A DNA stretch of 64,000 nucleotides, from positions 3,968,001-4,032,000 of the forward strand of contig NC_092352.1 of NCBI RefSeq assembly GCF_963676685.1, in the 5' to 3' direction. The notes beneath the pieces are model-generated. The model worked only from the letters and a program-made list of their open reading frames with translations. It did not search any database and was not told the DNA's origin. Origin of the DNA: Mytilus edulis (taxonomy: Eukaryota). The position numbers were made by a program, and so were the translations under genes. Shown here in pieces: positions 14,513 through 64,000 of this stretch; the stretch's first letter is position 1; each line of letters starts with the position of its first letter.

Positions 14513-15298
14513 GATACACCTGATCGCCATTTGTCCGCCATATCATTTTCGCTATATTTAGAATGTACATTTGAACACCAAAAGATAGTGTGGTGAAAAT
14601 AACTGACGATTTTATCAGCTAGAAGTGTTAAATTTTCTATTTTTAATCTTTGCTAAACATGGATTTAGAGTGGTATAAAAGGATATGATTACGCCTTAGT
14701 TTTGTGGTAATTTGCCTTTTCCAGGATTAGAATAATATTCTTATTGCTAGGTTGTTAGTGGTTAATACGGAAGTGATACACCTGATCGCCATATGTCCGC
14801 CATATCATTTTCGCTATATTTAGAATGTACATTTGAACACCAAAATATAGTGTGGTGAAAATAACTGACGATTTTATCAGCTAGAAGTGTTAAATTTTCT
14901 ATTTTTAATCTTTGCTAAACATGGATTTAGAGTGGTATAAAAGGATATGATTACGCCTTAGTTTTGTGGTAATTTGCCTTTTCCAGGATTAGAATAATAT
15001 TCTTATTGCTAGGTTGTTAGTGGTTAATACGGAAGTGATACACCTGATCGCCATATGTCCGCCATATCATTTTCGCTATATTTAGAATGTACATTTGAAC
15101 ACCAAAATATAGTGTGGTGAAAATAACTGACGATTTTATCAGCTAGAAGTGTTAAATTTTCTATTTTTAATCTTTGCTAAACATGGATTTAGAGTGGTAT
15201 AAAAGGATATGATTACGCCTTAGTTTTGTGGTAATTTGCCTTTTCCAGGATTAGAATAATATTCTTATTGCTAGGTTGTTAGTGGTTAATACGGAAGT
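14513..15298. repeat. 3 x 262-bp near-perfect tandem repeat
   Basis: Units start at 14513, 14775 and 15037 (GATACACCTGATCGCCAT...) and differ at only a few positions. Confidence 0.95.
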
Positions 15299-16539
15299 GG
15301 TTAGAGGTCCATCCCCATCCCCAATCGTCACAACTCGGCCGATTCCGTACCTCATCTAGGAGAGAAGCGGGGTCACCCAAGGACTGCCGATTGTCCCCAT
15401 CCCGAGTCAAAAAAGGCAAAATCATTTTGATGAGTAAAATGACAGTTTTGTCGACAAAAGGTAGAGCTCAACATTTGAACAATACTGTTCCGGACAGATT
15501 TTCTCTATTTACAGCTGTTTTCAAAATAACTTTAGTTTACACCTTTTATTTTTTATTTTTGCTGTGTCGACCATCTTGGTCGGCAGGCTGTGACACCTTT
15601 TTAAAACAAGATATCCAAATGATGATTGTGACCTAGTTTTGTTAAATTCCTGGAGAAGATTTTTGTATAGTTTAAGGACGACGACGAACGATTGGGACAA
15701 GGGAGCAAAAAAAATATGTGGTATTATTGTCAATGAAATAACCTTTCACCAGAGGTAGTAGTTAACAACTACAGGTAACAATACGGCCTCCAACGATGAA
15801 CAAGATGCATAACGCAAATCAAGCTGTGAAAAACACCGAAATGTCAAATGTTCAACGATTCAAACTGGAAAAACGGACTGTCTAATATATGTACAAAACA
15901 AATTCAAACACACATATAATATAAAGGCAACAAACGAACTACAGGCCATAAAGCCGGCTAAACAAAATCTTACGTTTGCACTTCAGTCATCAAATCTCAG
16001 TAACTATGTGCGATGTGTTTAATATTTAGTTGGTTGGTTCCTAGTTATAATTTCTATAGATTTTTTTTTATCATTTACATTACGGGGAAAAGAAACGAAA
16101 GATAACAACAACACAATCAAAACTTATAAACCAAAAAGGGACCGATCATGCCATGGCAAAATATCGAAAACAAAGTAAAGACAGTCTACAAAACACAAAC
16201 TAAATTAAGACTGAGCAAAACGAACATCCTAGTCCACATAAAACCCTCATCGTGTTGATCATTGGCAAATTTAAAGCTTCTTGATTTGAATTTTTAAAGT
16301 GTATATATGAAATAAAAATCCACGAGATTTGAGGGCACTATACAGTCGAGTGTTTAATTTTATTATCGTTTAACCAATGTTGAAAAGTATTTGATAACTG
16401 GCAAAATAGTATCAATGACGATACAACACAACCAAAACAGATTCACAAAACGATATAGCTAGATTCGATGTGTGCTATATCTTCGATCTTAAGCAATCAT
16501 TAACATTTTTTATCATTTCTTTATTATCAAATGTATGCT

Positions 16540-40518: not shown

Positions 40519-41408
40519 GTAAAAGTCTTATAAAATCTTATTTATTTTTTAATAGTTTTTGAGAACTTTAACTGGTCAATGATAAAGCTATGAAAAACCA
40601 AGAGAGATCGTTTTACCGCTAATATCTCATAAACAAGCACATTGACCCTTATATATTTTTGGCTCTTTTTATTCCTCAATTTATCCCTTATCAATATATA
40701 CTAGTGTTATAGAAAGCTATTTATTTTGAAACTGAGCAGCGAACTTCCTGAAAGGAGTTGCATTCTTTTTAAAAGTATTTAGATTTTATAATTAAAAAAA
40801 ACGGATTCTAGAGGCTAATATGATATTTATGAATATCTAACAACGAATAAAGAACCGGTTGATAACTTCACATGCTTGTGTACTATGTGGTCTGAAGAAG
40901 TTGATAAAGATAATGAGGTACTCCATTACAGGCGACACTTTCATATCAAGGGAACAGTAAGTCAGTTTTTTGAGATAAAAAAATGTCGTTTCTTTCCCCA
41001 CTCCATCTCCTTCGCTGTCAGCCGTCAGAAATGAGTTCAAATGAATAAGTTTTTAATACTTACACAGTTATATAGGTAATGTTATATGAGAGACATGTGC
41101 AAATAGAAAGCACACATTTATACTTATAGAATTGTACGACAACAGTCATACTACACGGTTGTGCCACGTCTATCTAACTTTACATTGGAAAATAAAGGAC
41201 CTTGGCTGCCATCCATACCCTCATACATATGCATGTGTGTATTTTAACATGTCAATATACCAAACATTATTCTGGCTAGAAGTATGCTCGTCTTTTCTCT
41301 TACTTATAATACGTAAGATTCAGATTACCGAACGTCAAGAACTCTTTTGTACATGAAGGTACGTAAGTCGTGTGACGTCGGGGCAACTATTTGTTTACAT
41401 TGACGACA

Positions 41409-43681
41409 ATGGACTCTGATTTTAAGAATAAAAACGTCCCGGAAATCAAACAGTTCTTGAAAAACAGAGGTGTTAAAACAACGGGTTATAAAAAGAGTAA
41501 ATTAGTTGAATTAGCTGAAGAAGCGGAATTACAAAAGATTCCCGCCTTTGAACCCGATAATTACATATTCGCAAATAAAATACGGCGAACTGTAGATGGT
41601 GTCGAGTTGCCGCATCCCAAGACTGTTATTGATTGGTCTGATGATTTAAATACAATTCCAATAATTGAAGCGTTTGATGTTAATCATTATTTAAAAAACA
41701 TTTGTAACTGGACAAATGAACGTTTGAAAGGCTATAAAAATGACAACAGTTACCGTCTTCATTCTAATGGACATATCCGTGATGTTAGGCAGTCAAAATT
41801 TCACAGCGATATACACTATGTAAAAGCAGCATGTGTACCAGAAGAGAGACAGTCTGCTGACCCGTACGAAGTTTGGATAGTGGTCCTATTTGATGGGTCA
41901 ATACATTCAGCAGAATGTACATGTGTGGCGTAAGTTCTTACATGAATAATCCGAGTCCGAGGGTGTGGGTGCCGATGGGGTTTACAGAATAGAGAATAAT
42001 GGGGTGTTAAAATATAAAGAATAACGCAAGAAAATAATGAATAGATTGGTTAAAAAGTATGTTGAAAACAGAAAAGAATAATAATATCAAGAATACAGTT
42101 ATCAAGTACATGTAATTGTAGAATTCTGATTAGCCATATCTGTTTAAGATAAAAATGAAAGTAATGAGCCAGAAAAATTAAATAAAGATTAAAAAAGATG
42201 AATAATCACATCAAGAATTGCCAAAAAAATGTGTATTTTTATTATGTCATCTGTTTTTGATTTTTAACCTACATGGAATACCATATTATCAGTTCACTCC
42301 AAATTACTGTAAAGGGCACATAAAATTAATTTCCATTTTTTTCTCTCTCAGAATTATCACCTTCAAAAAAGAGATGCAAACAAGCGGGGATAGTCAATGT
42401 TGATTTTTCAGAGACAAAAGATTTTTTTTTTCAAGCAACTTTTTGTTTTTATTTTTTAAATATAGGGAAACATTGTTTTTTGAAAATGTTTAATCCCTCG
42501 AGCACTTCTAAAAAATGAATACTTCAGTGTATATAATTATTTTACAGTGGTGATGGAACATGTAAGCACGTGGCAGCACTCCTGTTCGGGATGCAAAGAT
42601 TTTGTCAGGATTTGTCCGATAGATCGGTTATTTCTGTTACTGACAAGGCTGCTAAATGGGTTAACCCAGTCAGAACATCAGCTCCAGTAAAAATAACCTC
42701 TTTAGACCTGAGGAGTGAGCCTACAGGACAACCACCAATCAAACCAACAAGTGACCATTATAGGCCTTCTTGTCATAACATGACACCACATGCTGTAGAA
42801 AAAGAAATGCTTCGGTTAATAAAATCAGAAAACTTACCAGCATGCGCAGCATATGTTCTGTCAGATAGCTCTGGTTCGGAGTATGATTTTGAGTGTTTGC
42901 CTGTCAACATACTAGATCTAGCAACACAATTTAATAATGATGATTCGTCAGATGATTCACTTGAATCTTTTATTGAGCACATACATAGAAATATCCCTGA
43001 TAATTATTTCACTGATATATTCGAAAAGACTGTCAGTCAGAGTGATAGTGATTTGTGGTTTTATCAGAGACATGGCAGAATAACAGCTTCCATTTTATAT
43101 AGTTGTCTTCATTTTTCAGGAAGAAACCCTGATGGCCATCTAGTCAAACTCATTTTAGGTCTTACAAACAGTGTTAATTCAGACTTGCCTGCTTTAAGAC
43201 ATGGAAAAAAATTTGAACATGTTGCTAGAGAGTCTTATATCTTCATGACAAAAAAAATTTGCATGATAATTTAGAATGTAAATTATCTGGGTTTGTAATT
43301 GACAACAACAGTCCTTACTTAGGTTGCTCTCCTGATGGTTTACTAGAGTGTAAATGCTGTGGACAAGGTTGTTTGGAAATAAAATGTCCATATAAATTTT
43401 CAGAAGAAACACCAATCAATGCTGCTTGTTTAGACAAAACAAACTTTCACATAGAAAATGATACTCCACTTATGAAGAGAAATGACACATCTCCGTATTA
43501 CTGTCAAATTCAATGTCAGCTTGCAGTTACTAAACGAAAATGGTGTGATTTTGTATTATTTACTTTTAAAGGTGTACATCATGAGAGAATACCATTTGAT
43601 GAACAATTTTGGTCTAATGTTTTTCCAAAACTTGCATCATTCTACAGTTCATATGTTCTACCAAAAATTCTGCTAGTATAG
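41409..43681 (+). CDS. Transposon accessory protein: SAP-like motif, SWIM zinc finger, YqaJ/lambda-exonuclease domain (~551 aa if the frameshift is repaired)
   Basis: Exon 1 is 41409-41929 and exon 2 is 42548-43681. The splice creates the SWIM motif CTCVAGDGTCKHVAALL. YqaJ motifs: GRITAS, HGKKFE, LGCSPDG, LEIKCP, YYCQIQCQL, WCDFV. A single -1 frameshift sits at the A8 run 43250-43257. Confidence 0.85.
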
Positions 43682-44233
43682 AGTCAGAATTACACATGTA
43701 CCAGTTGAATACTTTGTTTGAAGTTCATTACAATTCACAATATAAAACAGTGATAAAGTTTGGTTATATAATTTAATTTGATTAAACATAACTAAAATAA
43801 ACAATATTAAACATAATAAATATCATCTTTTATGTTAAGACAACTTATGATATATGTCGCTTTCAATATTTAAAACATTATCAGCTGATAATGTAAATAG
43901 TCTCTATTCTTCTAAATTTAGAAAAGACAACTCTTTCAAATGGGAGATAACCTACTATTGTGCATAGACGTGTACATCTGTTAGTTTTGTAATTTTGAAT
44001 ACATGATAAAGCCATATTTCCACTACTTATCGGTTTTTGAAAGAAAATTTTAGAACAGAATAATTCTCTTACTTAAGCTGTTGATTTTTTTTAATCAAGG
44101 AATATAATTTTTAGTATTAACATGAATCATAAAAGAAAAAAAGAAACACTGGATAAAAAATTGCCAATCATTGCTCCTTTAATTAATATATATGTCAAAT
44201 AAATTTCAAATGATTTATTAAACAAAACAAGTT

Positions 44234-47200
44234 TTATAACTTTTGAACTAATGGTTTCATCAGGTTACAAAAAAATCCTGCAACCTTAAGAGCCTGATTA
44301 GCAACAGAAAGTGAATTTATTGGCATAACACCACTTAAGAATTTATAAGATTTCAGTCTCTGGATTGATCTTTCTACATGTATTCTCAAAGAGGCTATGG
44401 ATTTTGATTCCTTAATCTCCTTTGCCGTAAGACATCGTCCTTTTCCATGTTTACATGGTCTGGTAAATGGTGGCATATTTAAGGTGGCACCTTTTGATAA
44501 TAATAAGTCTTTGATTAAAAAACCTCTGTCAGCCATTACATGATCCCCCTTTTCAATCAGATCAATGAATCCACTTCTTTCAGTAATGCTCCTATCAGAA
44601 ATGTTACCAGTCCATAAGTCAGATATAAACGAAAAAGCTCCATTTGGTGTTATACCTACAAGCGTTTTAAAAGTGTTCTTTGACTTGTAATTTGACCACG
44701 TTTTTGACTGTGCTGTTGGGTTTCTTGGTCTCTGCACATAAAATTCAGTAGCATCGATGATTACACGAGTGTTAGGATATTTTCTACGAAATGATAGAGG
44801 CATATGTTTTTTAATCTTTTCCTTAGATGGCCATTTAATAAGTGGTCCTAAACATTGTGCCATTAAAGATATCCAAGTCGTGAAAACCCTGCTAATTGTT
44901 GACTGTGAAACACCAAACAAAAGAGACAACACATATGTGTTTAGTCCTAGCCTCAACCTCAAAAGAGTTATAACAAATTCTTCAAAAAAAGTCAACTTCC
45001 TTGAAGCACCAGGTTTTTTCTTATTATTTACTTGCCATCTTTTACCGTCACTTGAGTCAGGACCCATCCAGTATTTCATTTTTGAAGCATGTCCTTCTAA
45101 TAATTTAAAAATTCCAAAAAGCATTGAAATACTTGGCAGTCCAAGAAAACATTTAACATTACTATTTGATTTAGTCAACTTTTCAACGAGTTTGTCCTTT
45201 AGCAGTTCATCTGTATTATTAAACTTCTCATTTAAAACTTTATTTTCCTCTTTGGTAGCATGTAGTTCAACTTGTAGCAATTTAACTTGCTTCCGTAGCT
45301 GGTTATTATCTGTCTCATATCTTTGACATTTTTGCTGTGAAAAAAAGTAATAATTATAAATACATAAATCAATGCAAACAATTTATGAAATTGTTTTTGT
45401 ATTTTTTGTTTACTTAAGTCAAGTTGGTAACAATAAAACAATACAGTTGTATGATTGATTGATTTTTGGTTGCTTAACATTCAGTGGCAAATATTTCATG
45501 CATGTTCAGAATGAAATACAGTTACACATGTATATGGTATAATGACTAAAAAAAAACATTTACATGTAATACTATATTTCAACATGTTCAAGTTGGATTA
45601 CAAATTTTAAAAGTAAATATATATTTAGTAAAATGTTTGAATAGATCATATTTAATATTGATGTATTAATTTGAATATAAAAGCACCTTGCTTCTTACAT
45701 TATATAATTTTTGATGTATGAACTGCCATCTAATAAATTAAAACGAATCAATTTTTGATTGAAATACATATTATTTCTATAGTTCATAAGAATAAGATTA
45801 AAAAATATCTTTTACATGGCTTTTGACTCTTATATCCAATGGAGGAATTTTCAATATCAGATAAAATCCAAATTAATTTCGTACCTCTAAGGTGTTGCTA
45901 TTTTCAATTAACATTACACATTTTTCCTCAATGGAGACATCTTCACTAACTTCAGTGCTAGTGCAATAAGTGTGGTCCAAACTTGGCTTTTCAATGTAGG
46001 AAATTACTGAAAGTAAGTAAATATGTACTATTTAAATTAGAATTATTTGACTACAATCAGTCAAGATCATAGACTGTTTGATTTAAAAGAATTAAACGTA
46101 CGAAATGTGCATGTAATTTAGAAAGTTGAAGTACAAAAATGTCATGAATGTAGGTAATCATTTTATAAATGGGAACTAGAACCATATGTTTAAGAGCCAT
46201 AACTCTCAGAACACATATCTTTTCTACTGGACCTTTAAGACTGTCCACCAGTATACCAGTTGATGGTGTACATGTAGTGTGCAGACAAAATTAATCTGAG
46301 ACTCATATTTATCTTTGCAAAATACTTTTTAAATTTTGTTTTTGAAGTTTAGTTTATTTTGTGATAAAATAATATTGGCAATTATTTTATCTTGAAATTG
46401 TGAAGATAAATTGTTTAAAATTTAATATATGACTTTTATATTTGTATTTTAATTAGAATTATATTATAATTGTTATAAAGCATTGTTTACTAATTGATTT
46501 TATGTGGTCATTGACTGATTAATCACAATTGTTATTGTTAAATTAAATTATGAAAACCATCCATGCATTTTAACTATAAATATATATATATGCCTATCAG
46601 AACATGCAGTCATACAATAGACTGACCCCTATGTTCCTTGGTTCAGTTACATGTACATGTAGCTCCCTCTGATTTAACAGTACCATGGTGGCACACTGAC
46701 TATTTAGTCATGACATCATTTTTTATTAGTTTTACTTAAAATTACCTGGAATATCTGGTATGTATTTCTTTTGTCTTGGTACTTTTGGCAGTTGTGAAAC
46801 TGTAACAATGTTTGCTGGTCTGTAAAATATATTAAAAAAAATAAATATATATATATCTTCATGTGCATACAGTCCAATATTTAAAAAACACTGTTCGTAA
46901 ACATGAAAACTTTTTTTTAAGTTGTCAAAGCTTATTATCTTGGAGCCTCGTAGACATAAGACGGGTAATTTCCGCCTCTTATAAACAGATAAAAGGGACA
47001 AACATCTGTTTTCTACCCCCCCCCCCCCCCCCCCCAACACACACACACAATTTTCTTTTACTGTTTCATCATAATAGGCAAACAAGACAAAAATATATTG
47101 AAGAATGAAAAAGGAAGAGGACACTAATTTCAACTATTTGTCACTTACTGTGTTGTCAATATCAATTGTTCAATGGGACGTAAGGTACTGTTCTTGGTGT

Positions 47201-47510
47201 CTCTTGGTGTTCCAGTTTTGTAGTTGTTGTAGGCAAATAGGGTTGGGACTGCATTTTCCTTCGTAGGTCTTCCTTCAATAAAATGACGGGAGCAAAGTGC
47301 ATGCCAGTGACAATTTGGGTCGGGATTGAACCCTTCCCTTCTTATCTGAGACAACCAGAGCTTCCTTAGTTTAGGATTCTTTATGACTGAAGGAAGTACA
47401 TGAAAGTCGACGATACATCCATTTAAAATCATATCAGGATACTTTACAGCATTATGTTTCTTTCGTGAATCGTTGGAGCAACCCTCCGCTATGCAGTGAA
47501 AATTCACCAT
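44234..47510 (-). CDS. THAP-domain Harbinger-like DDE transposase (THAP, DHTY motif, coiled coil, HTH_Tnp_4, DDE_Tnp_4; 552 aa)
   Basis: Exons 47510-47149 (THAP: CIAEGC, W, LCSRHF, AVPTLF), 46819-46746, 46006-45885 and 45334-44234 total 1659 nt in one open frame. The catalytic motifs IIDATE, ADRGF and RIHVER are intact. Confidence 0.92.
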
Positions 47511-49233
47511 GCTTCTTTTCGAAGCTTTACCGCTCAAAAACTATCATAATAATTTTACATGACGTACATTTTATACATGTGTTTTGACACAAAACATGCC
47601 CATAATAACGCAAAATCTCGCAGTAAACGTTATCACTAGGGCGAGACTAACGGTAACCTCAAATACGGAACGGATAATCTGAATCTTACGTATTGAAGCA
47701 TGCTTAGCAGAGAAGCAGTTCTGTATATAACCTTGTGTATTGTATTTTCTACCTACTAGCATGTTTTTCCGAATTTCCCTTTTATATGTTTGGACATAGA
47801 CATGTTTTATATTTTCAAAGTCACTAGTATACTTGTGCATAAAATAATTGTATCTGAAATATATTTCGATCTCTAATTTATTTTTTATTTGAGTTCATTA
47901 GATCGATGGCACCTTTGTTGACAAAAACAAGCGTCTTGTGTTTTCGACCTATCTAAGAAACGGGTCTAAAGTCGGAAATGACATGTCGTACAAATCCGGA
48001 ATAGGTTATAAACTTGAAACCATAGTTTATATCAAAGTGTTAGAGGCGATCAAATTTATGACTTGATGAATTAAATGCAGTAACATATATACAACTATAA
48101 GATATAAAATATTATTTTGATATCTTTTTTAGACAAGTTGTACACATTTCAAAATGAGGCACTTTGGAAGCCTTGTGTGGTCTTGTATATATTCATGTTT
48201 TTGTTTAATACTTTAGTTAATGCATTGTGAAGTGAGGTTGGTGAGTATTGTTTTTAATTTCCACTGCCAGACTTTTTTTTCTGTATATAAAAATTAACTG
48301 ATATTTTATTTTTTGGTAAAAAGCTGTAAAGAGCATGCATATTTCCATATTCAAATTACCTTTAAGTATTAAATCTAACCACATGACAGTCATGTGACTT
48401 AATGACCTTGAAGGTAACTTTGCATGCAAAAAGACCTCTGCCATTTTTTTAGATTTTTTTTTTATAACAGATCTTTTCTTTTGGAAGGTTAAACTAGTAT
48501 TAGTGAAATTGTACAAAAATTGATATCAAATAAAAAATCGAAAATACTTAATTATAATAACTTTATTTGTAAAATCTTCACCCACACGTGTAATCATTTG
48601 CTATAGTTACTAAGTATAGCAGCCAAATATGATGTCACACGGGCGTGAAAGTAGAATTAGGTCGAAAACGTAAGACGGTCGAAAACACAATACGAGACGA
48701 TAATACCAATTTTCTCGACCTATCATCCTGGATGTCTGGTGTGAATTATTTATAGCTAAATTATAAGATATTTATATCTGTTTATAGAAAAATGATTGCC
48801 AATGAGACAACTCCCCACAAGAGACTAAAATGACATAGAATAGTGCAATGATCTATAAATTTGTATGGATATATATGTGCCTTGTCCAAAGCCATCTTAT
48901 CTTCAGATTTTAGAGGATAATAATGCTGTTTTCATCATGTTCATATTAGATTTGAACAATTTGCTTATTTAGAAGATAACTGTATTGTATTTTAAGCTCA
49001 ATTGATGCCATGTAAATAAGTGACGTTATCCAATCAAAATTAACGTTACAAACGTTGTTGCATCAGAATACCCTGTTGATGCAGGATGACATGTTATGAA
49101 GCATACAATATCCAGAAAATTTGGTTATCTGAAAATAATAATCATGCATGATAATAAGGACTTTGTCACCTGCCTAGATACATTTGTGTCATCACATGTA
49201 ACTATATTCCAGAAGTTTGATATTGCATATACA

Positions 49234-50239
49234 TATTAGGATGTCATCTACAGGTATTATTAGGATGTCATATACATGTATTATTAGGATGTCATCTACA
49301 GGTATTATTAGGATGTCATCTACAGGTATTATTAGGATTTTAACTACAGGTATTATTAGGATGTCATATACAGGTATTATTAGGATGTCAACTACAGGTA
49401 TTATTAGGATGTCAACTACAGGTATTATTAGGATGTCATCTACAGGTATTATTAGGATGTCATATACATGTATTATTAGGATGTCAACTACAGGTATTAT
49501 TAGGATGTCATATACAGGTATTATTAGGATGTCATCTACAGGTATTATTAGGATGTCATCTACAGGTATTATTAGGATGTCATATACATGTATTATTAGG
49601 ATGTCATCTACAGGTATTATTAGGATGTCATCTACAGGTATTATTAGGATGTCAACTACAGGTATTATTAGGATGTCATATACAGGTATTATTAGGATGT
49701 CAACTACAGGTATTATTAGGATGTCAACTACAGGTATTATTAGGATGTCATCTACAGGTATTATTAGGATGTCAACTACAGGTATTATTAGGATGTCATA
49801 TACATGTATTATTAGGATGTCATCTACCCGGTACATGTATTATTAGGATGTCATCTACAGGTATTATTAGGATGTCAACTACAGGTATTATTAGGATGTC
49901 ATATACATGTATTATTAGGATGTCATCTACCCGGTATATGTATTATTAGGATGTCATCTACAGGTATTATTAGGATGTCAACTACAGGTATTATTAGGAT
50001 GTCATATACATGTATTATTAGGATGTCATCTACCCGGTACATGTATTATTAGGATGTCATATACAGGTATTATTAGGATGTCATATACAGGTATTATTAG
50101 GATGTCATATACAGGTATTATTAGGATGTCATATACAGGTATTATTAGGATGTCAACTACAGGTATTATTAGGATGTCATCTACAGGTATGATTAGGATG
50201 TCATCTACATGTATTATTAGGATGTCAACTACAGGTATT
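49234..50239. repeat. 24-bp minisatellite (TATTAGGATGTCA[TC/AC/TA]TACA[G/T]GTAT), ~41 copies
   Basis: Contiguous tandem units with a few variant types. Confidence 0.97.
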
Positions 50240-52204: not shown

Positions 52205-55200
52205 ATGGCGTCTTCTGATAAAGGAAAGTTCAGAAATCGTCTTGCAAATGAGAAATCTCCTTACTTGTTACAACATGCTTCTAATCCTGTTAACTGGTAA
52301 GGTATTATATCTAAATATAGATAATTGATGATAATTTCAAACCAAGTGTTTCTCAGCTACAATTACGCACAAGTAGCATATGAACAGAAAAATTATCACA
52401 AAAAAAGAGCAACTTAGGCAAAATGCACAAAATAGGGATAAGAATAAATATCACCAAAAAAATTCAAAGGAAAATATTAGAAAATAATATTAGATTACAT
52501 GTATAACATGTATAGTGTTGTTGACCAATTTGATGCTCCTAATGCTTGTAGTAATTGTTCATGATGATGGACACTAGACTACTTATGTTTTCAAGGTTAA
52601 ATCACAAAATCATGAAAATATAAGTTATCTTTTCAATGTCAATTTTCCTAGGTTTACAATCCATTCTGGATTAGACAATAGACAATAGACAATATTTTAT
52701 TAGCACAAACACCATGAACACATTTACATTAAATGGTTATGGCATACAAAATTAAATAAGTCTAAAAAGTTCTGTCCATTTACATGTGTAGATAGATTAG
52801 AAGGTGACTTTGGAAACACCATGTATCAATACAAGACTTGCATATAGAATTGTGATACATGTAGATGTACAAATAATGATAAAGATGGCTTTCATGAAGT
52901 TGAAATAAAGTTAAAAAAAAAATTTAAGTATAAAAAAAAGAAGATGTGGTAATATAGTTGTCAATACGACAACTCTCCACAAGAGACCAAAATGACACAG
53001 AAATTAACAACTATAGGTAACCGTAAGAGCTGTAAAAACTGTGGTAGAATATAAAGGGGTTTTGAATTAGTGATATGATACCTTTTTATGTAGCTGCTTT
53101 TAATTTTTTTCTAAGGTATCCTTGGGGAAAAGAAGCTTTTACCAAAGCCCAAGAAGAAAACAAACCAATATTTTTATCAGTTGGTTACTCTACATGTCAT
53201 TGGTGCCATGTTATGGAAAGAGAATCATTTGAGAATGAAGAAGTGGGCAAGATTCTCAATGATGATTTTGTTTGTATAAAGGTGGACAGAGAAGAAAGAC
53301 CAGATGTTGATAAAGTCTACATGACATTTGTACAGGTAATTGTTGATGTTACTTTTGATAAAGTGTACATGATATTTGTACAGGTATTTGTTTACTGTAC
53401 AATGTTGGCTTGGGAACACAGTTATATTGTCCTTTGATTTTCCTTGTCCATGAACATATTTCTAGTGTGGACAGTGTGTTACTTGCAAATATTTTTAATA
53501 TCCCTTCTAAATTTTATTTCTTTATGTTTTATGCCTCAAATAGCAAGTAGGGGATGAAGTTACACTATGAAAAAAATTGGGTCATGAATTTTAAAGTAAA
53601 GTAGTGATTTGGTCCAGCTGATAAATTAGCATTTTTGAAAGCTGTCAAAGATTTCAAGACCCCCTTAACATAAAATTGTCAATATTTTGAGTAAGAGATG
53701 ATGAATATTTCTATAATTTTGATATAATTTGTCCCAAAAGTAGTACAACACACTGTAAAAATTTTATCGAGAAAGCGTATGTGCAATTTTTATACGACCG
53801 CAAAATTTGAAAAATTTTTCGTCGTATATTGCTATCACGTTGGCGTCGTCGTCTGCATCGTCGTCGTCCTCCTCGTCGTCGTCGTCGTCGTCCGAATACT
53901 TTTAGTTTTCGCACTCTAACTTTAGTAAAAGTGAATGGAAATCTATGAAATTTTAACACAAGGTTTATGACCACAAAAGGAAGGTTGGTATTGATTTTGG
54001 GAGTTTTGGTCCCAACATTTTAGGAATTAGGGGCCAAAAAGGGCCCAAATAAGCATTTTCTTGGTTTTCGCACTATAACTTTAGTTTAAGTTAATAGAAA
54101 TCTATGAAATTTTTACACAAGGTTTATGACCACAAAAGAACGGTTGGGATTGATTTTGGGAGTTTTGGTTTCAACAGTTTAGGAATTAGGGGCCAAAAAA
54201 GGGCCCAAATAAGCATTATTCTTGGTTTTCGCACAATAACTTTAGTTTAAGTAAATAGAAATCAATGAAATTTAAACACAATGTTAATGACTACAAAAGG
54301 AAGGTTGGTATTGATTTTGGGAGTTTAGGTCCCAACAGTTTAGGAATTAGGGGCCAAAAAGGGACCCAATTAAGCATTTTTCTTGGTTTTCGCACCATAA
54401 CGTTAGTATAAGTAAATAGAAATCTATGAAATTTAAACACAAGGTTTATGACCATAAAAGGAAGGTTGGTATTGATTTTGGGAGTTTTGTCCCAACATAA
54501 TAAGGGGCCCAAAGGGTCCAAAATTAAACTTTGTTTGATTTCATCAAAATTGAATAATAAGGGTTCTTTGATATGCCGAATCTAACTGTCATGACTGTGT
54601 ATGTAGATTCTTAACTTTTGGTCCCGTTTTCAAATTGGTCTACATTAAGGTCCAAAGGGTCCAAAATTAAACTTAGTTTGATTTTAACAAAAAATGAATC
54701 AGTTAGGTTCTTTGATATGCTGAATCTAAAAATGTACTTAGATTCTTGATTATTGGTCCCCAGTTTTCAAGTTGGTCCAAATCGGGGTCCAAAATTAAAC
54801 TTTGTTTGATTTCATCAAAAATTGAATAAATGGGGTTCTTTGATAAACCAAATCTAACTGTGTATGTAGATTCTTCATTTTTGGTCCTGTTTTCAAATTG
54901 GTCTACACTAAAGTCCAAAGGGTCCAAAATTAAACTTAAAAATTGAAATCTTGGGGTTCTTTGATATGCTGAATCCAAAAATGTACTTAGATTTTTTATT
55001 ATGGGCCCAGTTTTCAAGTTGGTCCAAATCAGGATCTAAAATTATTATATTAAGTATTGTGCAATAGCAAGTCTTTTCAATTGCACAGTATTGCGCAATG
55101 GCAAGAAATATCTAATTGCACAATATTGTGAAATAGCAAATTTTTTTTTAATTAGAGTTATCTTTCTTTGTCCAGAATAGTAAGCAAGAAATATCTAATT

Positions 55201-58200
55201 GCAAAATATTGTGCAATAGCAAGATTTTTTTTTAATTGGAGTTATCTTTCTTTGTCCAGAATCAACTTAAATCTTTGTTATATACAATATAAAATGTATA
55301 TTCACTTTTTACTACCAACTGATAAATTAAAATAATCTTTACCATTCAGTGATAACAAGCAGTTTTTTTACATCTTAATATTTTATGATGTATTTAAATG
55401 AGTAGTTATTGTTGCAAACTCCATTAGAAATTTTAATTGAGATTAGTTTTGGAATAAGGGAAAGGGGGATGTGATTAAATAAATTGGGTTCAATTTTTCT
55501 CATTTGAAATTTCACAAATAAAAAAGAAAATTTCTTCAAACATTTTTTTGAGAGGATTAATATTCAACAGCATAGTGAATTGCTCTAAGAGAAAACAAAA
55601 ATTTTAAGTTCATTAGAACACATTCATTCTGTGTCAGAAACCTATGCTGTGTCAACTATTTAATCACAATCCAAATTTAGAGCTGAATCCAGCTTGAATG
55701 TTGTGTCCATACTTGCCCCAACCGTTCAGGGTTCAACCTCTGCGGTCGTATAAAGCTACGCCCTGCGGAGCATCTGGTTTAAAATTTCATTTATTGTCTA
55801 ATAGAAATGCACTAGGAAATAACTGTGTTCTTGGGCCTGTTTCTGTGGATATTAACATATTAATGTTGATAAAGTGTACATGACACGTGTACAAGTAACT
55901 GTTTATATATATATACTGTATTGAAATAACTTGAACAATATTTGTTTGGGTAATGGACTTAATACAATTAAAAAATTAAAACAACACATTAATAATTTCA
56001 TGCGTCTGAAGTGCTTTTCTGGATTTACCATGTTTACCTTCATCAGGAACACTCATTACAGGAAGTTGAACTATCAATGTTTGATAAGATTATAATTATG
56101 TCTGTTTTAGGCCACACATGGAAGTGGAGGATGGCCCATGAGTGTTTGGTTGACACCAGACTTGAAGCCTATTGTTGGAGGAACATACTTCCCTCCTGAT
56201 GATAGATATTATGGCAGACCAGGGTTTAAGAGTATTCTGAAAAAGATTGCACAGCAGGTAACCATGTTTCATATATCATGTATATGTTTAATAGAAAACA
56301 TATTATTTTTGTTTCACTACATAATCAACAAGATCACTAATTACTAATTTAAAATAAAATTTTGGTATGGTTGTTTTGTTGAAGATTTAGAAATTACTGA
56401 CAAAAACAGCTCTACAAACATAAATTTTTAGGTTACTTTAAATTCAAAATTTTTGCAATGTTTTGATAAATTATTGTAAAATGAACAGGATAGGATGTGC
56501 ATAAAAAAATGCATTGTAAAGTTTGAGAGTATTTAAGGTATGCACCATTTCCAAAAATCACAATAATATTCCTGCAATTTTGTTCAATTTTCAACAATCA
56601 CAATAATAAATGAATTAAAAAAAGTTCTATCCTCACAGTATATATCATGTATATAATCATATAAATCTCAATAATAGAATTGTAAAATTCTAAAGTTATT
56701 GTGTGTAATGAGAAATATTCAAAGATCTGCATTCAGTGTGTATAGTGAAGTTTTTTTTTTAATGAGGTTCATCCCCAAAATACATTTTATAATGATATGC
56801 ACTACAATGGAAAACAATTTTGTATTGAATATACATACATATTAATCTGAATCTTTATTTTGTTAATGTTTTCAATGAAACATATTCATGAAATACAAAA
56901 AGTAGCCAACCAAAAAAATTAACTCATTCAAAGGGAGATAATTCTGCAGTTTTGAGTTTCTAATTGATGGTATATTATTGTTAGTGGGAGGAGAAGAGAG
57001 AGCTGATAGACCATCAAGGAACAGCTATATTGGATGCATTAATGAATGGTACATTGTTAGCAGGGTCAGCTGACCTAGGACGTCCTGGCAGAGAAAGTGT
57101 CTCTAAATGTTATCAAATGTTACAAAAGTCTTATGATGAAGAATTAGGAGGGTTTGGTAAAGCACCAAAATTTCCCCAGCCAGGTATATATAAAAACATA
57201 TCCTTAAGTGATTGAGTATGTCTGACATATCTCAGGATTCATAGCCTCCTTTGCATCTACTTACTTTCCTTTACGATTATTGTAAAACAAAATTTCGAAC
57301 TTCCAGGTAAACATATCAGTTTTAATCAAATCAAATTGAGAATGGAAGTGGGAAATGTGTCAAAGAGACAACAACCCGACAAAAGAACAGACAACAGCAG
57401 AAGGTCACCAACAGGTCTTCAATGTAGCGAGAAATACAGGATTACATTTGCTCATTAAATAGCAACAATTGTATTAAACATGATCACCTCTTTGGTAATA
57501 ATAAAACAGATTTTATGACTAATTATTAAGTGTGTTTTATTTTTCAGTGAATTTTAATTTCCTGTTCCATTTGTATGCCACAGAACCTAATAGTGAAGTT
57601 GGTAAGATGGCATTAGAGATGAGTCTGCAGACACTCAGGTTTATGGCTAGAGGAGGAATTAATGATCATGTTTCTAAAGTAAGTTGCTATTTTGTATTTA
57701 AAGCAGAAACTACTGGCAGAATTTTCCCTGATAATATTTTCCTGATGGAATGAATAATTATACTTCTCTATATATAAACAATACCAATTATTACACAGAA
57801 TTTACAAACAAAAATTTGTTCACTTAAAATGGGGCAAAAAATGATCATGGTTTTAACATATATTTTTGTTTGTTCACAATTGAAACACCAAGAATAATAA
57901 AAAATTTCAAATTTTATTCAGAAATTACAAGTGTAATAATGGCTGTACAAATGATATTTTATGATAATAAAAAAGTTAGGTCTATTTTTTAGGTTAACTG
58001 TATCCTGTTTCAATGATTATATTTTTACACAACATTAAAAAATGTACACATTTGAAACATGATTATATTCAAGTTTTGAAAATTTGTATTCTTAAAAAAT
58101 CCTTAAAGGCTAATGTAAAAAAAAAATCAATATATTTATGTTTTGCAATACTGATGATGAGTTTATTGACAGGGCTTTCATAGATACTCTACAGACACAA

Positions 58201-61200
58201 TGTGGCATGTGCCACACTTTGAGAAAATGTTGTATGATCAAGGACAGTTGTTGGTGGCTTATGCCACAGCCTATCAGGTATGTATACTAGAAAGAAGAAA
58301 AAATAATTGTTAAATATGTACCTTTTATCAGGTTGTCTGCATTTCTTTGGAAATAGAGAAAAAAAATTGAGTCTTGCAAAGTTTTTCTCCTGTTTTTGTA
58401 GCTAGAACAAATAAATTTAATATTCATACAAGGTACAAATATTATGTTTATTCTGCAATTTAACATTTATGCTTAAATCTTTAATTTTTAACTACCCAAC
58501 CATTGAATTTGTTTCTAAGTGACTAACATGCAGACTACTATACACAATACTTGATTAATTGTGACATTTACAGTGACTTAAGGTTTAATTTGTTTCACAG
58601 AGCTATGGTCATGGATAATTCTTTTTGTACAAAGTCAGATTTTAATCAATTTGTATTTTTAATTCAAAATGCTGAATTACAATATGAGTTATCTATCTTG
58701 GTGCATAATATGATAAGAAGACGTCGCGCTCTGAAAAGTAATCTACAGTCTTAATTGTATATTTTCGTAAGAGTCAAAGTTTTTTTAATTTATTTATTTT
58801 TTAATTCATGATTGTATATATCTGTAAAAGTCAGTTACAGTTATTTTTTTTTTTTTTATTTATTTTTTTTTTAATTCATTTCAATCATATTCTTTTTATT
58901 GACTATTTTACTGAGAGGGTTTTAATAAAACAAGATTACTGCGTTTTATTCTTCGCAATCTGTTTATATAACCTCTTTAAAATATATTCTTTTTATCACA
59001 TATCATTAATTTTTTATGTCATACTTAATTTTGTCATATCTATTTTTAAAAAGACATTTTTTTTTTTTTTTTTTTTTAACTACTTACAAATTATGTTAAT
59101 ATATTTTTTTTTATGATGTGTAATATCCGGATAATTTTAAACATTTATAACATTTTATTATGTTTTTATTTTGTATTTGTTAAATAGATATAAATTTGTA
59201 TATATAGTGTCTCATAAGCCTTTCTAGGCTGGGTATTTGTCTTATTTTATTATTGTGCAATGTATATTATATAAACTGTATAAATAATCTGTAGACAAGT
59301 ATGTGACACTCTTAATAAAATAAATTATTATTTACTATAACAACCCCTTATTTTTGTTATATATATTTGAATCACAGATAAATCTGTTAAAAACTTTATT
59401 AAGGGGATCTGTTTAATTTGAATGCTTTAAAAATTTGTAATTTAAAACAGAAAGATGAATTTGATTACAGATAACTAAAGATGAAACGTTTGCTGATGTT
59501 GCCAGAGATATAGTGGAATATGTGACTAGAGATTTACAAAGTCCTGTAAGTTAATTAAAAAATTCCTGTAGATATAATAATAATGAGATGTGGTATGAAT
59601 ACCAATGAGACAACTATCCCAGAGAGTACAAATGTCTTGGATTTAATTAGGTATACGTTACAGTTCATCCTTCAACAATGAGAAATCTGAAACTGTATAG
59701 TGAGTCATAAAAGGCCTTTACATGCCAAAATGTGAATCGAATGAACATAGAAATTCAACAACCAGATTTATGACAAAAAAAAACCCAAAACCTCTATGAC
59801 AGACAGCAACCAATGACAGCCACTAGATGGAGACCCACATGAAAGAAGCAGTGTTTAACATGTTTATTAAACATCATGAACATATAGCTAATAAAATTGA
59901 GAAAGGAAATAGGGAATGTTTCAAAGCGACAACAACCAGACCATAGAGCAGACAACAGCCGAAGGCCAACAAAGGGTCTTCAATGTAGCGAGAAACTCCC
60001 GCACCCTTAGGTGTCCTTTAGCTGGCCCCTTAAAAAATATGTATACTAGTACAGTGATAATGAACGTCATACTAAACTCTGAATTATTCACAAGAAACTT
60101 AAATTAAAAAATCATACAAGACTAACAAAGGCCAGAGGCTCCTGACATGGGACAGGCTCAAAATTGTGGTGGGGTTAAAATTGTTTATGAGATCTCAACC
60201 CTCCCCCTATACCTCTAGTCAATGTAGAAAAGTAAACGCATAACAATACGCACATTACAATTCAGTTCAAGAGAAGTCCGAGCTAGCTAAGCTAAGTATA
60301 TATGTTTGCAGTCAAAAACATAATTATTAAATGAGCTTTTTGAAATAAGTTGTAATAATGTGTATTACAAATAATAATAATTCTGCTAATAATGATGGAT
60401 ATTATTAACAAGTCAATGAAAACTGAGATCTTTGTAAATGTTAAAATATTTAATATAATCAATTTTGTAGAATTAGATATTAAAAAATACCTCTGAAAAA
60501 CAGATAAAAAAAATCATATCTTAGTATTTGCAAGATGTTCTTTTCTACAACCAAATTCTTTTTTTTCTCAGGAAGGTGGGTTTTATAGTGCAGAAGATGC
60601 TGATTCCTACCCAGTAGATGACACTTCAGAGAAAAAAGAAGGTGCCTTCTGTGTTTGGACCTATGAGGAGATACAGTCTCTTCTGAAGGAACCAGTAGAA
60701 GATAAACCAGACATTAAAATGGCTGACATATTTTGTTTTCATTACGATATTAAAGAGGATGGGAATGTTGATCCAATGCAGGTAGATATAATAAGTTCTC
60801 TGAAAACTAATTAATTAATGACACACATAAACATATCTATAACCTATGCTACAAATCAATGCAGAGCAGAGGAGGGCCGCTAATCACTTCAAATTAGCAA
60901 GGCTTGATAAAAAAAAAATTGTACTGTTTTTCCAACTCTTAGTCCATCAGATTTTCAGCCCTTTTGGGATTCTGTAAGCTTATAAAAAAATTATTTATAT
61001 TTGATCACAGTTGTACTTATTCATATGATATAATGTGAAGAAAAGATTTACATGATAAGTTATATAGATGATTGTATATTGCAAAATTGGATAGTGTAGC
61101 TTTTGCACTAGCTGTGTATATTATGTACTGTGTTCTTTTTTTTCTCTTTTATTTATTTACTATTCTCATTATTAATTCAAGTTATGAAAGAAAAACCACA

Positions 61201-63592
61201 TTTTGACTTATAATTTTTCAGATATTGTAATATTTTTGTCCTGATAATCTTTATGTTTATTTCAGGATCCACATGATGAATTGAAGAATGAGAATGTTTT
61301 GATTGTTAAAGGTTCTGTAGGACAGACTGCAGAGAAATTTACTATTGGAGTTGATAAGACCAAACAGATATTAGAGCAATGTCGTCAAATTCTATATGAA
61401 GTCAGACTGAAGCGACCCAAACCACATCTTGATACTAAGATCTTATCTGCATGGAATGGTATGTTTGATTACACGATACATATAATTTGTAATATATATT
61501 TATTTTACTTAGTTGTTCAGATTCAGATAATACTGGTAGAAAAAAGAGGGACGAAAGATACCAGAGGGACAGTCAAACTCATAAATCAAAAATAAACTGA
61601 CAACACCATGGTAGAAGCTAGACTGCAGGACTTTTCATTAGTTTAATATATATAAAAGGAAAGCAGTTTAGATTTGTGCAAACCTGTCTGAAGTCCAGAC
61701 TTATTATGTAAAGTAAGAGATTTGTGTATGTTAAACTGGTTTATTTTTACCTCATTTTATTCCTGTACCATGGTTTTAACCTACAGTGATAAGAAAGAAA
61801 ATATATACATTATTTTCTTAGCAAAATCAACATTGTCCTGAAACTTGTAATTTATTTTGTAGGATTAGTAATATCTGGTTTAGCAAAGGCAGGGTCTGTT
61901 TTGCCTAACAAAGATTTCGTGGCCAAAGCAGAAAATGCTGCCTCTTTTATACAGAAATACTTATACAAAGCAGATGATAATGTCTTATTACGTAGCTGTT
62001 ACACAGAAGGGAAGGATGTTGTCCAAGGGTTCGTATATTTGTACTAGCTAGTTTCTGGTGGGACATTAAGTTTTCCTAACTTTTCTGTAAGCTTTATTCA
62101 AACAAGGCCAATGCAGCTAGAATGAGATTTACAAATTTAGTGAGTAATTTAAACCAAGTTGTTTGTTTATTTTCTTTAATTCTTTGTATATCTCTTTCAA
62201 TTAAAAAAGATCTTCCAACCGCTGCTGTTTCTAATTAAAAATTTAAATCTCCAAGATTTTAATGTTAAAGTTAACATATTACATGTTCATGCTAATATGA
62301 ACACAGACATGAACATGGTGCCAAGGATGCTTTGATTATTTTTTCCAGACAGACAGTGATACAAGGTTTTGTAGATGACTACACATTTATGATCCGAGGT
62401 CTGTTGGATTTATATGAAGCCAGTTTTAATGACAAGTGGCTATCCTGGGCAGAGTCACTTCAGCAGAAACAAGACGAGTTATTCTGGGATACAGAAGATG
62501 GAGGATACTTTAACAGTGTTGGTAATGATTCCTCCCTTGTACTCAGACTTAAAGAAGGTAGGTAAAGAGCAAAATATTTTTTCTTTTGAAAATATGTTTG
62601 CCTTCTCATGATCACCAAATGACCTTTATATAGGGGTTGAATTTTAAAACTATATGTATAAACATCAAATGCAAAAAGTAAAAACATAAAAATACTGAAC
62701 TCCAAGGAAAATTCATAAAGGAAAGTCCAAAATCACAAGGCAAAATTAAAAGTCCAAACAAATCAAACGAATGGATAACAACTGTAGCAAATAAGTGCTT
62801 TGTTCAATTAATAATAGATGCCTAGTTTCTCAATGTCCATTGACAAACTATGTCTATCAAATAATTAATGATCTTGCTTTTAGATGACAGTTCTTTAGAA
62901 CCTTTAATTTTTATATTGGCTTTACAGTTTAGTAATACAAGATCTTTGGTATGAATAAATTATGAGGTATAAGTCCATTAGACAGCAACAAATAAGATAA
63001 GTTAACAATTCCATTGTTCATGTAAGACAAACTACAAGGTGAATAATACTGCAACCTAAAAAAGCAATGGAAATAAAAATGACAACTAAAAACAACATGA
63101 AGTTGACAGTGCAGTTTTGCAAGCTGGTACAATGAAAAGTGAGACAAACAGACAGTTACTGCCTAGCAGACCTGATAATAACCTACAGGTTACAACAAAA
63201 CATTATTAACTTCCTATCAAGTATCAATTCACTCCTTTAAACAGAAGCTGGGTGTTATGGCAGCTAGGAAGGAACAAACAAAAAGTCAAGGGGTTGTTCT
63301 AATATATTACACACTCTATGAGTTAGGGGGGTAATTAATATTATTATTAATTTAATTAAACTAAATTGATTTCCAATTGTATATACTCACAGATCAAGAT
63401 GGCGCTGAACCTTGTTCAAACTCAGTAGCTGTGAGTAACTTACTCAGACTTTCAAACTTCATTGATAAACCAGAATACATAGAGAAAGCGAATAAGATAT
63501 TGACTGTGTTTAATGAACGTTTGATGAAGATTCCTCTTGCTGTACCAGAGATGGTTTCTGGACTTCTGTTTTCTCTGTCAACAACAAAACAG
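52205..63592 (+). CDS. SPATA20: Spermatogenesis-associated protein 20 (thioredoxin-like DUF255 + alpha/alpha-toroid), 3'-incomplete in window
   Basis: In-phase exons: 52174(ATG 52205)-52296 ([21 protein letters not shown]), 53116-53335 ([28 protein letters not shown]), 56111-56257 ([13 protein letters not shown]), 56985-57183 ([10 protein letters not shown]), 57548-57678, 58173-58277 ([21 protein letters not shown]), 59471-59545, 60572-60781 ([11 protein letters not shown]), 61266-61458 ([13 protein letters not shown]), 61863-62028, 62349-62557 (GFVDDY), 63393-63592 (DGAEPCSNS). Upstream exon(s) are likely. Confidence 0.96.
53407..55837. mobile_element. Non-autonomous TIR element with a 4-bp TSD, hosting a HINE
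   Basis: Ends GGCttggGAACACAGTTAT / ATAACTGTGTTCttggGCC; TGTT at 53403-53406 and 55838-55841. Confidence 0.65.
53787..55778 (+). mobile_element. Complete-looking Helentron-type HINE
   Basis: 5' TTTTTATACGACCGCA with a nearby IR (GTCGTATA, 53821), a (CGT)n microsatellite and internal ~120-bp tandem units. The 3' sub-TIR TGCGGTCGTATAAA (55741-55754) is followed by a GC hairpin. Inserted in a T run. Confidence 0.82.
59890..60282 (-). repeat. Dispersed retro-repeat tail family carrying a twister-like motif
   Basis: Its terminus is shared with 57333-57435; it contains 60132-60218. Confidence 0.75.
60132..60218 (-). ncRNA. Twister-ribozyme-like motif, P5-type permutation (best-paired P2/T1)
   Basis: The minus strand reads CTAGAGG-tata-GGGG-GA-GGG-t[tgagatctca]taaacaattt-TAA-CCCC-ACC-acaattttga-G-CCTG-TCCCATGT-CAGG-ag-CCTCTGG. 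Confidence 0.75.
61540..61610 (-). mobile_element. 70-bp extreme 3' end of PLE family 1
   Basis: Near-identical to 800-870 and to the reverse complement of ~29175-29243. Confidence 0.8.
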
Positions 63593-64000
63593 GTCAGTTC
63601 GTCTTGTATGATCAGGAAAGGTTAAGAAATTTTAAAAGTGTAGTTTACTATTTTAATTGGTATATATTGTGAATTTTCTCTATCTTCTGATATTTTTCAA
63701 ACCTTTTTGCTTGTCTCTGAAATAAAAAAAAGAGCTACTGAACCAACACCTCTTATGTTTTGTGCTGGTAGAGTTCCCTTTAATGGATAACAGATGGTAT
63801 GCAAGTTTTTCAGATAAAACATTTAAATGCTGCTAAACACTTAAGAAAACTGTATCTTTTATTGGTTGACATGTTTCACTCATTAAATTTCCCTGAAATC
63901 TAAATAACGAAAAAGAACGAACAATATGAACTTGGTTTAATAAGAAATAAAAGTTTAGACAAGAATTGTTCTGCACAGTAGATTCAATTTTGATTTCTAA

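Follow-up and report, generated by a model that had tools for sequence, protein, structure and literature searches.

Structure of the element

The window, a stretch of 64,000 nucleotides of the Mytilus edulis genome, harbors a DNA transposon of 6381 bp (41311-47691) which carries two genes in a convergent, tail-to-tail layout (Table 1). The minus-strand gene encodes a transposase of 552 amino acids in four exons that are separated by GT-AG introns and contain no stop codons. Pfam searches identified THAP, HTH_Tnp_4 and DDE_Tnp_4 domains, and the DDE triad is intact. Intron 3 was spliced out in contigs from three of four RNA-type runs, which agrees with the intact, spliced transposase of a preliminary description made from the window alone; that description had also seen no common repeats inside the element. 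This holds within the window (one 64-bp match), but intron 2 (ca. 46222-46681) is 68-70% similar to a repeat dispersed in the genome (23 of 47 genome matches).

Table 1. Features of the transposon, in window coordinates
Feature	Position	Strand	Remark
Left AT target-site duplication	41309..41310	.	target A|AT|T; empty-site joint and flank survey
Left terminal inverted repeat, 17 bp, begins AC	41311..41327	+	
Nuclease exon 1: SAP, beta-sheet, first SWIM half (C170, C172)	41409..41929	+	splice inferred
Nuclease exon 2: SWIM C179/H181, linker, lambda-exonuclease (YqaJ) domain	42548..43684	+	frameshifted here
Linker residues 217-279, predicted binder of the transposase core	42675..42863	+	
Private 2-bp (TA) insertion	43236..43237	+	
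Transposase exon 4: likely coiled coil, HTH_Tnp_4, DDE_Tnp_4 (D380, D455, E507)	44234..45334	-	
Transposase exon 3: D-H-T-Y HCF-1-binding-type motif at 45977-45966	45885..46006	-	
Transposase exon 2	46746..46819	-	joined to exons 1 and 3 in one RNA run
Transposase exon 1: THAP zinc finger	47149..47510	-	
Right terminal inverted repeat, 17 bp	47675..47691	-	
Right AT target-site duplication	47692..47693	.	empty-site joint and flank survey

The plus-strand gene was reported earlier as a second spliced gene with a phage-type exonuclease. Its SAP domain (E 4.5e-4, under the curated cutoff), a SWIM motif (CxC-x6-CxH) and the YqaJ domain are all found in the encoded protein. The Pfam SWIM profile did not match the protein and matched two homologs weakly (E 0.015 and 0.094), so the SWIM assignment rests on conservation of the motif. 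The splice was placed according to GT-AG borders, the reading frame and a 550-amino acid database protein (P0001); removal of this intron was not seen in the four RNA-type runs, where RNA cover of the gene is patchy. RNA contigs support splicing of the transposase introns; the gaps over the nuclease gene are not read as absence of its transcription or splicing.

In the window copy the nuclease reading frame is broken. The 2-bp insertion leads to a stop near 43272 and a product of 415 amino acids, which ends before the catalytic residues D436, E450 and K452 and retains the docking linker discussed below. None of the copies C2, C3 and C8 has the two extra bases, and neither does any of the five public runs that span the position. 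As these runs come from individuals other than the assembled one, an assembly error may account for the insertion. The frame break lies upstream of the A8 run near 43250 and is private to this copy, for which reason a programmed -1 frameshift or slippage on that homopolymer was rejected. Both reading frames, as expected of a potentially active copy, are intact in C2 and C3 and not in the window copy. The latter is nuclease-null, so the term complete cannot be kept for it in the sense of an autonomous element.

Target site and age of the insertion

The terminal inverted repeats (TIRs) match perfectly over 17 bp, or 20 bp if the AAT/ATT flanks are counted, and an exact search of the 1.37-Gb genome gave 10 occurrences of the 17-mer (reversed control, 0). 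The AT flanks have the context A|AT|T in 13 of 13 distinct end flanks surveyed, two of which are not independent since they belong to a tandem pair on C14. An empty allele of the window locus was found in two of four DNA-type runs, with a joint that skips 6383 positions, i.e. the element plus 2, and agrees with the proposed boundaries. Additionally, the flank of a second insertion, from run X15, corresponds to an empty AATT site in the present genome. As both empty sites (n = 2) read AATT, AT is duplicated on insertion; judged from sequence, an identical reading would result if an element with T...A ends had inserted bluntly into AA|TT. A search for a paralogous site lacking the element found none for the left flank, which is single-copy in the genome. 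TIR starts at 40 other paired loci and the window element gave AT-flanked matches in 20 of 41 cases as compared to 16-19 with control flanks, which is noise level and carries no weight here. In the same noise-level scan the TIR start was apparently AG at the sister loci L041/L042, L050/L051 and L073.

Three full-length copies are present in the genome, with identities of 99.58, 99.32 and 99.39% and unrelated flanks. The insertion is recent and still polymorphic, as the preliminary description had suspected, and the possibility it named of a single-copy, fixed locus does not apply. Read depth over the element is several-fold that of the left flank, although depth does not equal copy number. That the two genes are a domesticated host pair, or that the nuclease is carried along by chance, is very improbable: the low copy number is all that speaks for it, whereas the dispersed copies, empty alleles, perfect TIRs and a loss-of-function mutation in one copy, as well as the recurrence of this convergent arrangement in many further families, speak against it. 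Domestication of the pair is ruled out by the empty sites.

Relationship to known transposons

The ISL2EU group belongs to the PHIS (PIF/Harbinger-ISL2EU-Spy) superfamily (Han et al. 2015, PMC4482050; Han et al. 2014, PMC4122938). According to the accessible parts of these papers, ISL2EU elements share with the mussel element a THAP-HTH-DDE transposase, a YqaJ-type second ORF, A|AT|T insertion with duplication of AT and short TIRs (6-259 bp in the group). The protein sizes are near those of oyster families, for example 537/536 amino acids (Table S2). The element differs in that the TIRs start with AC, the usual GG being a tendency and no strict criterion, in that it is longer than the mean of ca. 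4840 bp, and in the frameshifted nuclease gene of the window copy. We regard its ISL2EU identity as virtually certain. Spy elements (no target-site duplication, AAA|TTT target, single ORF without THAP) were rejected in view of the AATT empty site, the two ORFs and the THAP domain, and PIF/Harbinger proper (TWA duplication, Myb/SANT second ORF) in view of the AT duplication and the SAP-SWIM-nuclease protein.

Similar to PIF/Harbinger elements, the element has two genes, a DDE_Tnp_4 transposase and a partner that binds the transposase (PMC9179366), which is predicted here. Unlike in those elements, the partner is a SAP-SWIM-lambda exonuclease instead of a Myb/SANT protein, the duplication is AT instead of TWA, and the transposase carries a THAP domain. 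Since a Myb-like protein serves Harbinger relatives as partner and most Spy elements carry a single ORF (PMC9179366, PMC4122938, as far as accessible), a nuclease is not generally required by this transposase class.

The second protein as a probable exonuclease

The nuclease domain is homologous to the lambda exonuclease/LHK-Exo family (YqaJ, PF09588) in fold, active site and 5'-phosphate residues. Profile alignment placed W344, R348, TAS, SPD436 and E450-K452 on W24, R28, TAS, SPD119 and E129-K131 of lambda Exo (E 3.5e-16); the match to LHK-Exo reached E 1.3e-30, and the top fold matches concur with the family. In lambda Exo, R28 contacts the 5' phosphate while D119 and E129 hold the metal (PMC3118119, accessible part). 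Intact copies thus carry both the PD-(D/E)xK core and the residues of the 5'-phosphate pocket. Unlike these exonucleases, the mussel protein is fused to SAP and SWIM modules, has an additional conserved His/Cys cluster (H412, C441, C443, C444) and has no adjacent annealase gene.

Active-site and 5'-phosphate residues are conserved in 60-63 of 62-63 homolog rows (E450 63/63, K452 63/63, D436 62/63), although searching with the nuclease exon, by which the 63 homologs were retrieved, favors conserved sequences. With that reservation, this near-invariance argues against a role mainly as an adaptor without catalysis, comparable to that of the Myb-like protein of Harbinger, in which the second protein would serve in binding, nuclear import and SAP/SWIM-mediated DNA holding with nuclease activity being secondary. 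Such a role would fit the predicted interface, formed by the linker rather than by the nuclease domain, and the binding of the Myb-like partner to Harbinger transposase (PMC9179366, accessible part); we consider it improbable.

The two genes recur together. Among the matches listed, a related transposase lies within 6 kb of at least 66 of 107 genomic nuclease loci, in 65 cases tail-to-tail, as compared to a chance expectation of ca. 0.001 per nuclease locus; 41 of the 107 have none nearby among these matches, and such nucleases also occur in other elements. The recurrence sustains the two-component system proposed at the outset. Comparison to the decayed C14 copy gave dN/dS values of 0.39 and 0.57 for the nuclease and 0.16-0.51 for the transposase. 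Of the 10 codons at which the nuclease genes of the young copies (n = 3) differ, 6 differ in the encoded residue; these numbers are small.

Predicted transposase-nuclease complex

Complex modeling placed linker 217-279, between SWIM and nuclease, on the transposase core (residues 389-398 and 415-436) with a score of 0.63 (best control, 0.01). Model runs agreed on at least 74% of contacts and the pLDDT of the partner was at least 77. The model contains a single transposase chain without DNA, and its score expresses model confidence only. In calibration, 51 of 78 solved pairs attained the score mark, as did 2 of 108 mismatched ones; for eukaryotes the corresponding figures were 39 of 65 solved pairs that had no similar complex and 2 of 126 unrelated pairs. 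The calibration leaves out predicted and disordered chains. Among blind neighboring genes, 7 of 44 also passed. A pass from a memorised structure is unlikely because the transposase has no solved relative at E<=1.

Parts of the linker had pLDDT values <50 when folded alone. Its hydrophobic positions 223, 226, 228, 261, 265, 274 and 278 are kept in 88-100% of homolog rows, and the transposase interface columns are not more conserved than the remainder (0.59 vs 0.64). Judged by the model, the nuclease protein probably binds the transposase directly through this linker. The SAP and SWIM modules had been proposed to target the nuclease to DNA; the model points to linker-transposase docking rather than to such targeting alone. 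SAP and SWIM are likely accessory and hold DNA.

The transposase carries a D/E-H-x-Y HCF-1-type motif that is kept in 22 of 25 homologs (0.6 expected). For the D-H-T-Y version found here, we put recruitment of host HCF-1 at about an even chance. The accessible parts of PMC4482050 and PMC4122938 contain no description of SAP/SWIM, an HCF-1-type motif or transposase binding, and the function of the second ORF was termed unknown in the 2015 paper. No report of ISL2EU nuclease function or binding was found in the literature searched, which lay outside Repbase Reports and subscription journals and was accessible in part. The predicted docking and the conserved motif would go beyond what was found there.

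Possible role of the nuclease

Taken as a whole, we judge it somewhat better than an even bet that this is a young, polymorphic ISL2EU element that inserts into AATT with duplication of AT and has a linker-bound, likely end-resecting second protein, the window copy being a nuclease null. The THAP-HTH-DDE transposase would insert the element into AATT, duplicating AT, and would deliver the lambda-type 5'-3' exonuclease to the cleaved ends, while its D-H-T-Y motif would recruit HCF-1. The tethered exonuclease would resect the 5'-phosphorylated donor-site flanks left by excision, which would favor sister- or homologue-templated repair, restoring the element and giving a net gain of copies. This resection-and-repair step is put forward tentatively, at somewhat less than even probability. 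The window copy would rely on nuclease from C2 or C3 in trans.

Tn7 (TnsA+TnsB; PMC11406308, accessible part) and KolobokE, where the nuclease is lambda-like (PMC9587614, accessible part), likewise combine a DDE transposase with a second nuclease, but these transposases are unrelated to the one described here. TnsA acts as an endonuclease, with its nicks placed just outside the 5' ends. A similar heteromer would leave only the 3' ends to the DDE enzyme, with the docked nuclease removing the second strand or 5' flank and being needed for excision. The predicted docking on the catalytic core and the pair kept together at 66 or more loci are in line with this. Against it stand the closest resemblance, in sequence as well as in fold, to end-dependent exonucleases, with the 5'-phosphate pocket intact, the lack of a nuclease partner in relatives from the Harbinger and Spy groups (PMC4122938, PMC9179366, accessible parts), and the intact DDE triad; we hold it to be unlikely. 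Equally doubtful is the wider proposal of a heteromeric transposase as eukaryotic TnsA+TnsB counterpart, in which the nuclease would clamp the DDE core via a folding-on-binding linker for obligatory end-processing at excision, and a THAP-DHxY arm would recruit HCF-1.

If the complex is real, a eukaryotic cut-and-paste transposase would bear its own end-processing nuclease and would steer repair of the break it leaves behind. The conserved HCF-1-type motif would bear on the origin of this motif in host THAP transcription factors. With intact, polymorphic and transcribed copies, a predicted interface of defined position and a naturally occurring allele that has lost the nuclease but retains this interface, the mussel family allows a direct test of what the second gene does in ISL2EU elements.

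Genomic surroundings

DUF255/thioredoxin exons begin 4.5 kb to the right of the element, as expected from its reported position a few kb upstream of SPATA20 exons; they belong to a SPATA20-type gene, SPATA20 being the name that we take to apply to this family.

Element structure and insertion sites

Features of the element and neighbouring sequence (positions within the 64,000 nucleotides)
Feature	Position	Strand	Remarks
ISL2EU element	41311-47691		6381 bp; bounded by inverted repeat
Transposase gene	47510-47149, 46819-46746, 46006-45885, 45334-44234	minus	four exons, GT-AG introns
D-H-T-Y motif	45977-45966	minus	transposase linker, between THAP and likely coiled coil
Second gene	41409-41929, 42548-43684	plus	two exons; converges on transposase gene
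DUF255 gene, presumably SPATA20-type	52205-63625	plus	multi-exon
Repeat-like part of transposase intron 2	46222-46681 (about)
Minisatellite	49226-50239		24-bp unit, about 1 kb
Tandem array	14513-15299		near-perfect, unit about 262 bp

The element is of an ordinary type and has the anatomy of a cut-and-paste transposon. Its terminal inverted repeat (TIR) is perfect over 17 bp (20 bp counting the AAT/ATT flanks), and a search of the 1.37-Gb genome gives 10 exact occurrences of the 17-mer and none of the reversed control. The transposase is a protein of 552 amino acids without stops, with THAP, HTH_Tnp_4 and DDE_Tnp_4 domains and the triad D380/D455/E507. Contigs from three of four RNA-type runs (two studies) have intron 3 of its gene spliced out, and those of one run lack introns 1 and 2; among the four, X15 is classed as RNA on a guess. 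The perfect TIRs with AT flanks and the intact spliced transposase of the preliminary description are thus confirmed. Part of intron 2 is 68-70% similar to a dispersed repeat. This repeat supplies 23 of the 47 matches found in the genome and is tandem in places with 2315-bp spacing; the intron part is common to all three full copies.

The element had also been called young, and its full-length copies, three in number (contigs C9, C2 and C3), show identities of 99.58, 99.32 and 99.39% with unrelated flanks. Decayed relatives are present as well: the C8 copy (L035-L036, G000:C8:112246-125694) has lost 1.56 kb internally and carries AT-rich filler as well as an inserted block, the C14 copy (L033-L034) is duplicated in part, and at two C9 loci (L028/L029) the left end is reduced to 102 bp. 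Annotated transposases of Mytilus edulis and M. trossulus (P0122-P0130) share 98.0-99.8% identity with that of the element, and a nuclease of M. galloprovincialis is 99% identical; the family spans Mytilus species, perhaps by introgression.

The insertion is polymorphic. Among the matches listed, contigs from at least two of four DNA-type runs (X1 and X13, two studies) run from 41308 straight to 47692, so that 6383 bases, two more than the element itself, are missing. A contig of X15 carries the element's left end beside a flank absent from the genome's listed ends; this flank is found once in the genome (C4, one mismatch), running on as AATT without the element. AAT adjoins the TIR at all 13 distinct end flanks (two from one duplicated C14 locus). 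From the two empty sites and the end flanks, the target is therefore A/AT/T with AT duplicated, as in the ISL2EU definition in the accessible text of Han et al. 2015 (PMC4482050). A T...A-ended element inserted blunt into AA/TT would leave the same sequence. Sister two-gene elements (L041, L042, L050, L051) have apparent TIRs adjoined by TAT or CAT, not AAT, suggesting that target context may differ between element families.

The second protein and its broken gene

The second protein matches the Pfam families YqaJ (E 3.3e-17), viral alkaline exonuclease and, weakly, SAP, the latter match being strong in some homologs. The SWIM call rests on C170-x-C172-x6-C179-x-H181, kept in 31/37, 33/38, 50/50 and 48/50 rows. 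The best matches of a profile of 63 sequences, out of 120 listed matches, are LHK-Exo (1.3e-30) and lambda exonuclease (3.5e-16), which also rank first by fold for the AlphaFold model (pLDDT 83). W344, R348, TAS, SPD436 and E450-x-K452 align to lambda W24, R28, TAS, SPD119 and E129-x-K131; according to the accessible part of PMC3118119, R28 of the lambda enzyme holds the 5' phosphate and D119/E129 the metal. T205 (55/55), W211 (56/56) and P214 (50/59) are conserved just after SWIM (about 42639-42668), in a stretch of low model confidence outside the listed transposase interface. A conserved cluster of H412, C441, C443 and C444 within the exonuclease domain (about 43260-43360) is possibly an extra zinc site.

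The preliminary description of the transposon as complete does not hold for this gene: two extra bases at about 43236 shift the frame after Y404, with a stop at 415 amino acids. The C2 and C3 copies encode 550 amino acids, the length of the intact database protein P0001, and the insertion is absent from the C8 copy, all four DNA-type runs and X15. Because the catalytic D436, E450 and K452 fall after the break, the window copy is nuclease-null, its product retaining SAP, SWIM and the linker; this copy would rely on the C2/C3 nuclease in trans. The young copies (the window element, L002 and L003) are set apart from one another by 9-17 indel events per pair, with many insertions of 2-9 bp that copy adjacent letters. 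The frameshifting insertion belongs to this kind and is therefore likelier a real mutation than an assembly error. RNA support extends to the transposase introns, not to the nuclease intron, for which no splicing was seen among contigs of four RNA-type runs.

Among the matches listed, a related transposase lies within 6 kb of the nuclease at 66 of 107 loci, 65 of them tail-to-tail, and 41 are unpaired (109 and 113 matches merged to 107 and 112; counts are lower bounds). Both genes were under constraint, as dN/dS measured against the decayed C14 copy shows: the nuclease gene gives 0.39 and 0.57, the transposase 0.16-0.51.

Predicted interaction and possible role

The transposase is predicted to bind the second protein. 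A complex of transposase residues 215-552 (taken from P0122, which shares 99.1% identity with the window protein) and P0001, modelled without alignments, scored 0.63 (runs 0.60, 0.63, 0.63) against 0.01 for the best control; the runs share at least 74% of contacts, with partner pLDDT of at least 77. The score mark was passed by 51/78 solved and 2/108 mismatched pairs, in a eukaryote calibration by 39/65 solved pairs for which no similar complex exists and 2/126 unrelated pairs, and also by 7/44 blind neighbours. In the model, partner linker residues 217-230 and 245-279 lie on transposase residues 253-275, 338-363, 389-398, 415-436 and 525-548. This linker is partly ill-ordered in the monomer model; its hydrophobic pattern is nevertheless kept across homologs. 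Counting against binding, the transposase interface columns are no more conserved than the remainder (0.59 vs 0.64). No solved structure related to the transposase was found at E<=1. The Harbinger Myb-like protein likewise binds its transposase, as the accessible part of PMC9179366 reports, whereas here binding is predicted.

The D-H-T-Y motif of the transposase matches the HCF-1-binding consensus D/E-H-x-Y of host THAP proteins, THAP9 included, and is a putative binding motif; the consulted part of PMC13631171 adds that the consensus does not bind HCF-1 in every case. D/E-H-x-Y stands at this position in 22 of 25 long homologs, related sequences hand-picked from 120 listed, as compared to 0.6 expected by shuffling; H157 is kept in 43/44 and Y159 in 39/41 homologs. 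The accessible literature searched held no report of such a motif in ISL2EU or Harbinger-type transposases.

We propose that the second protein would act as a 5'-3' exonuclease dependent on a 5' phosphate, and that the transposase would bring it to the ends created by its own cutting, most probably the donor flanks. Resection there would favour templated repair, restoring the element. Alternatively, the second protein could be an obligatory second-strand cutter, by analogy with TnsA of Tn7 (PMC11406308, accessible part), or mainly a non-catalytic adaptor. The defining paper, in its accessible text, gives the function of the second ORF as unknown (PMC4482050), and no functional test was found in the accessible literature searched; for the start of the TIR and for SAP/SWIM, Repbase Reports, subscription journals and PHIS figure supplements may also be relevant. 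With the predicted interface, the motif and a natural null allele, the function of the second ORF becomes directly testable.

Open frames of about 950-974 amino acids containing YqaJ occur on C3, C5, C7, C10, C13 and C14, with no Harbinger-type transposase nearby among the matches listed; these are possibly KolobokE-like fusions. The DUF255 gene, presumably SPATA20-type, lies 4.5 kb to the right of the element, in agreement with the SPATA20 exons first placed a few kb away.
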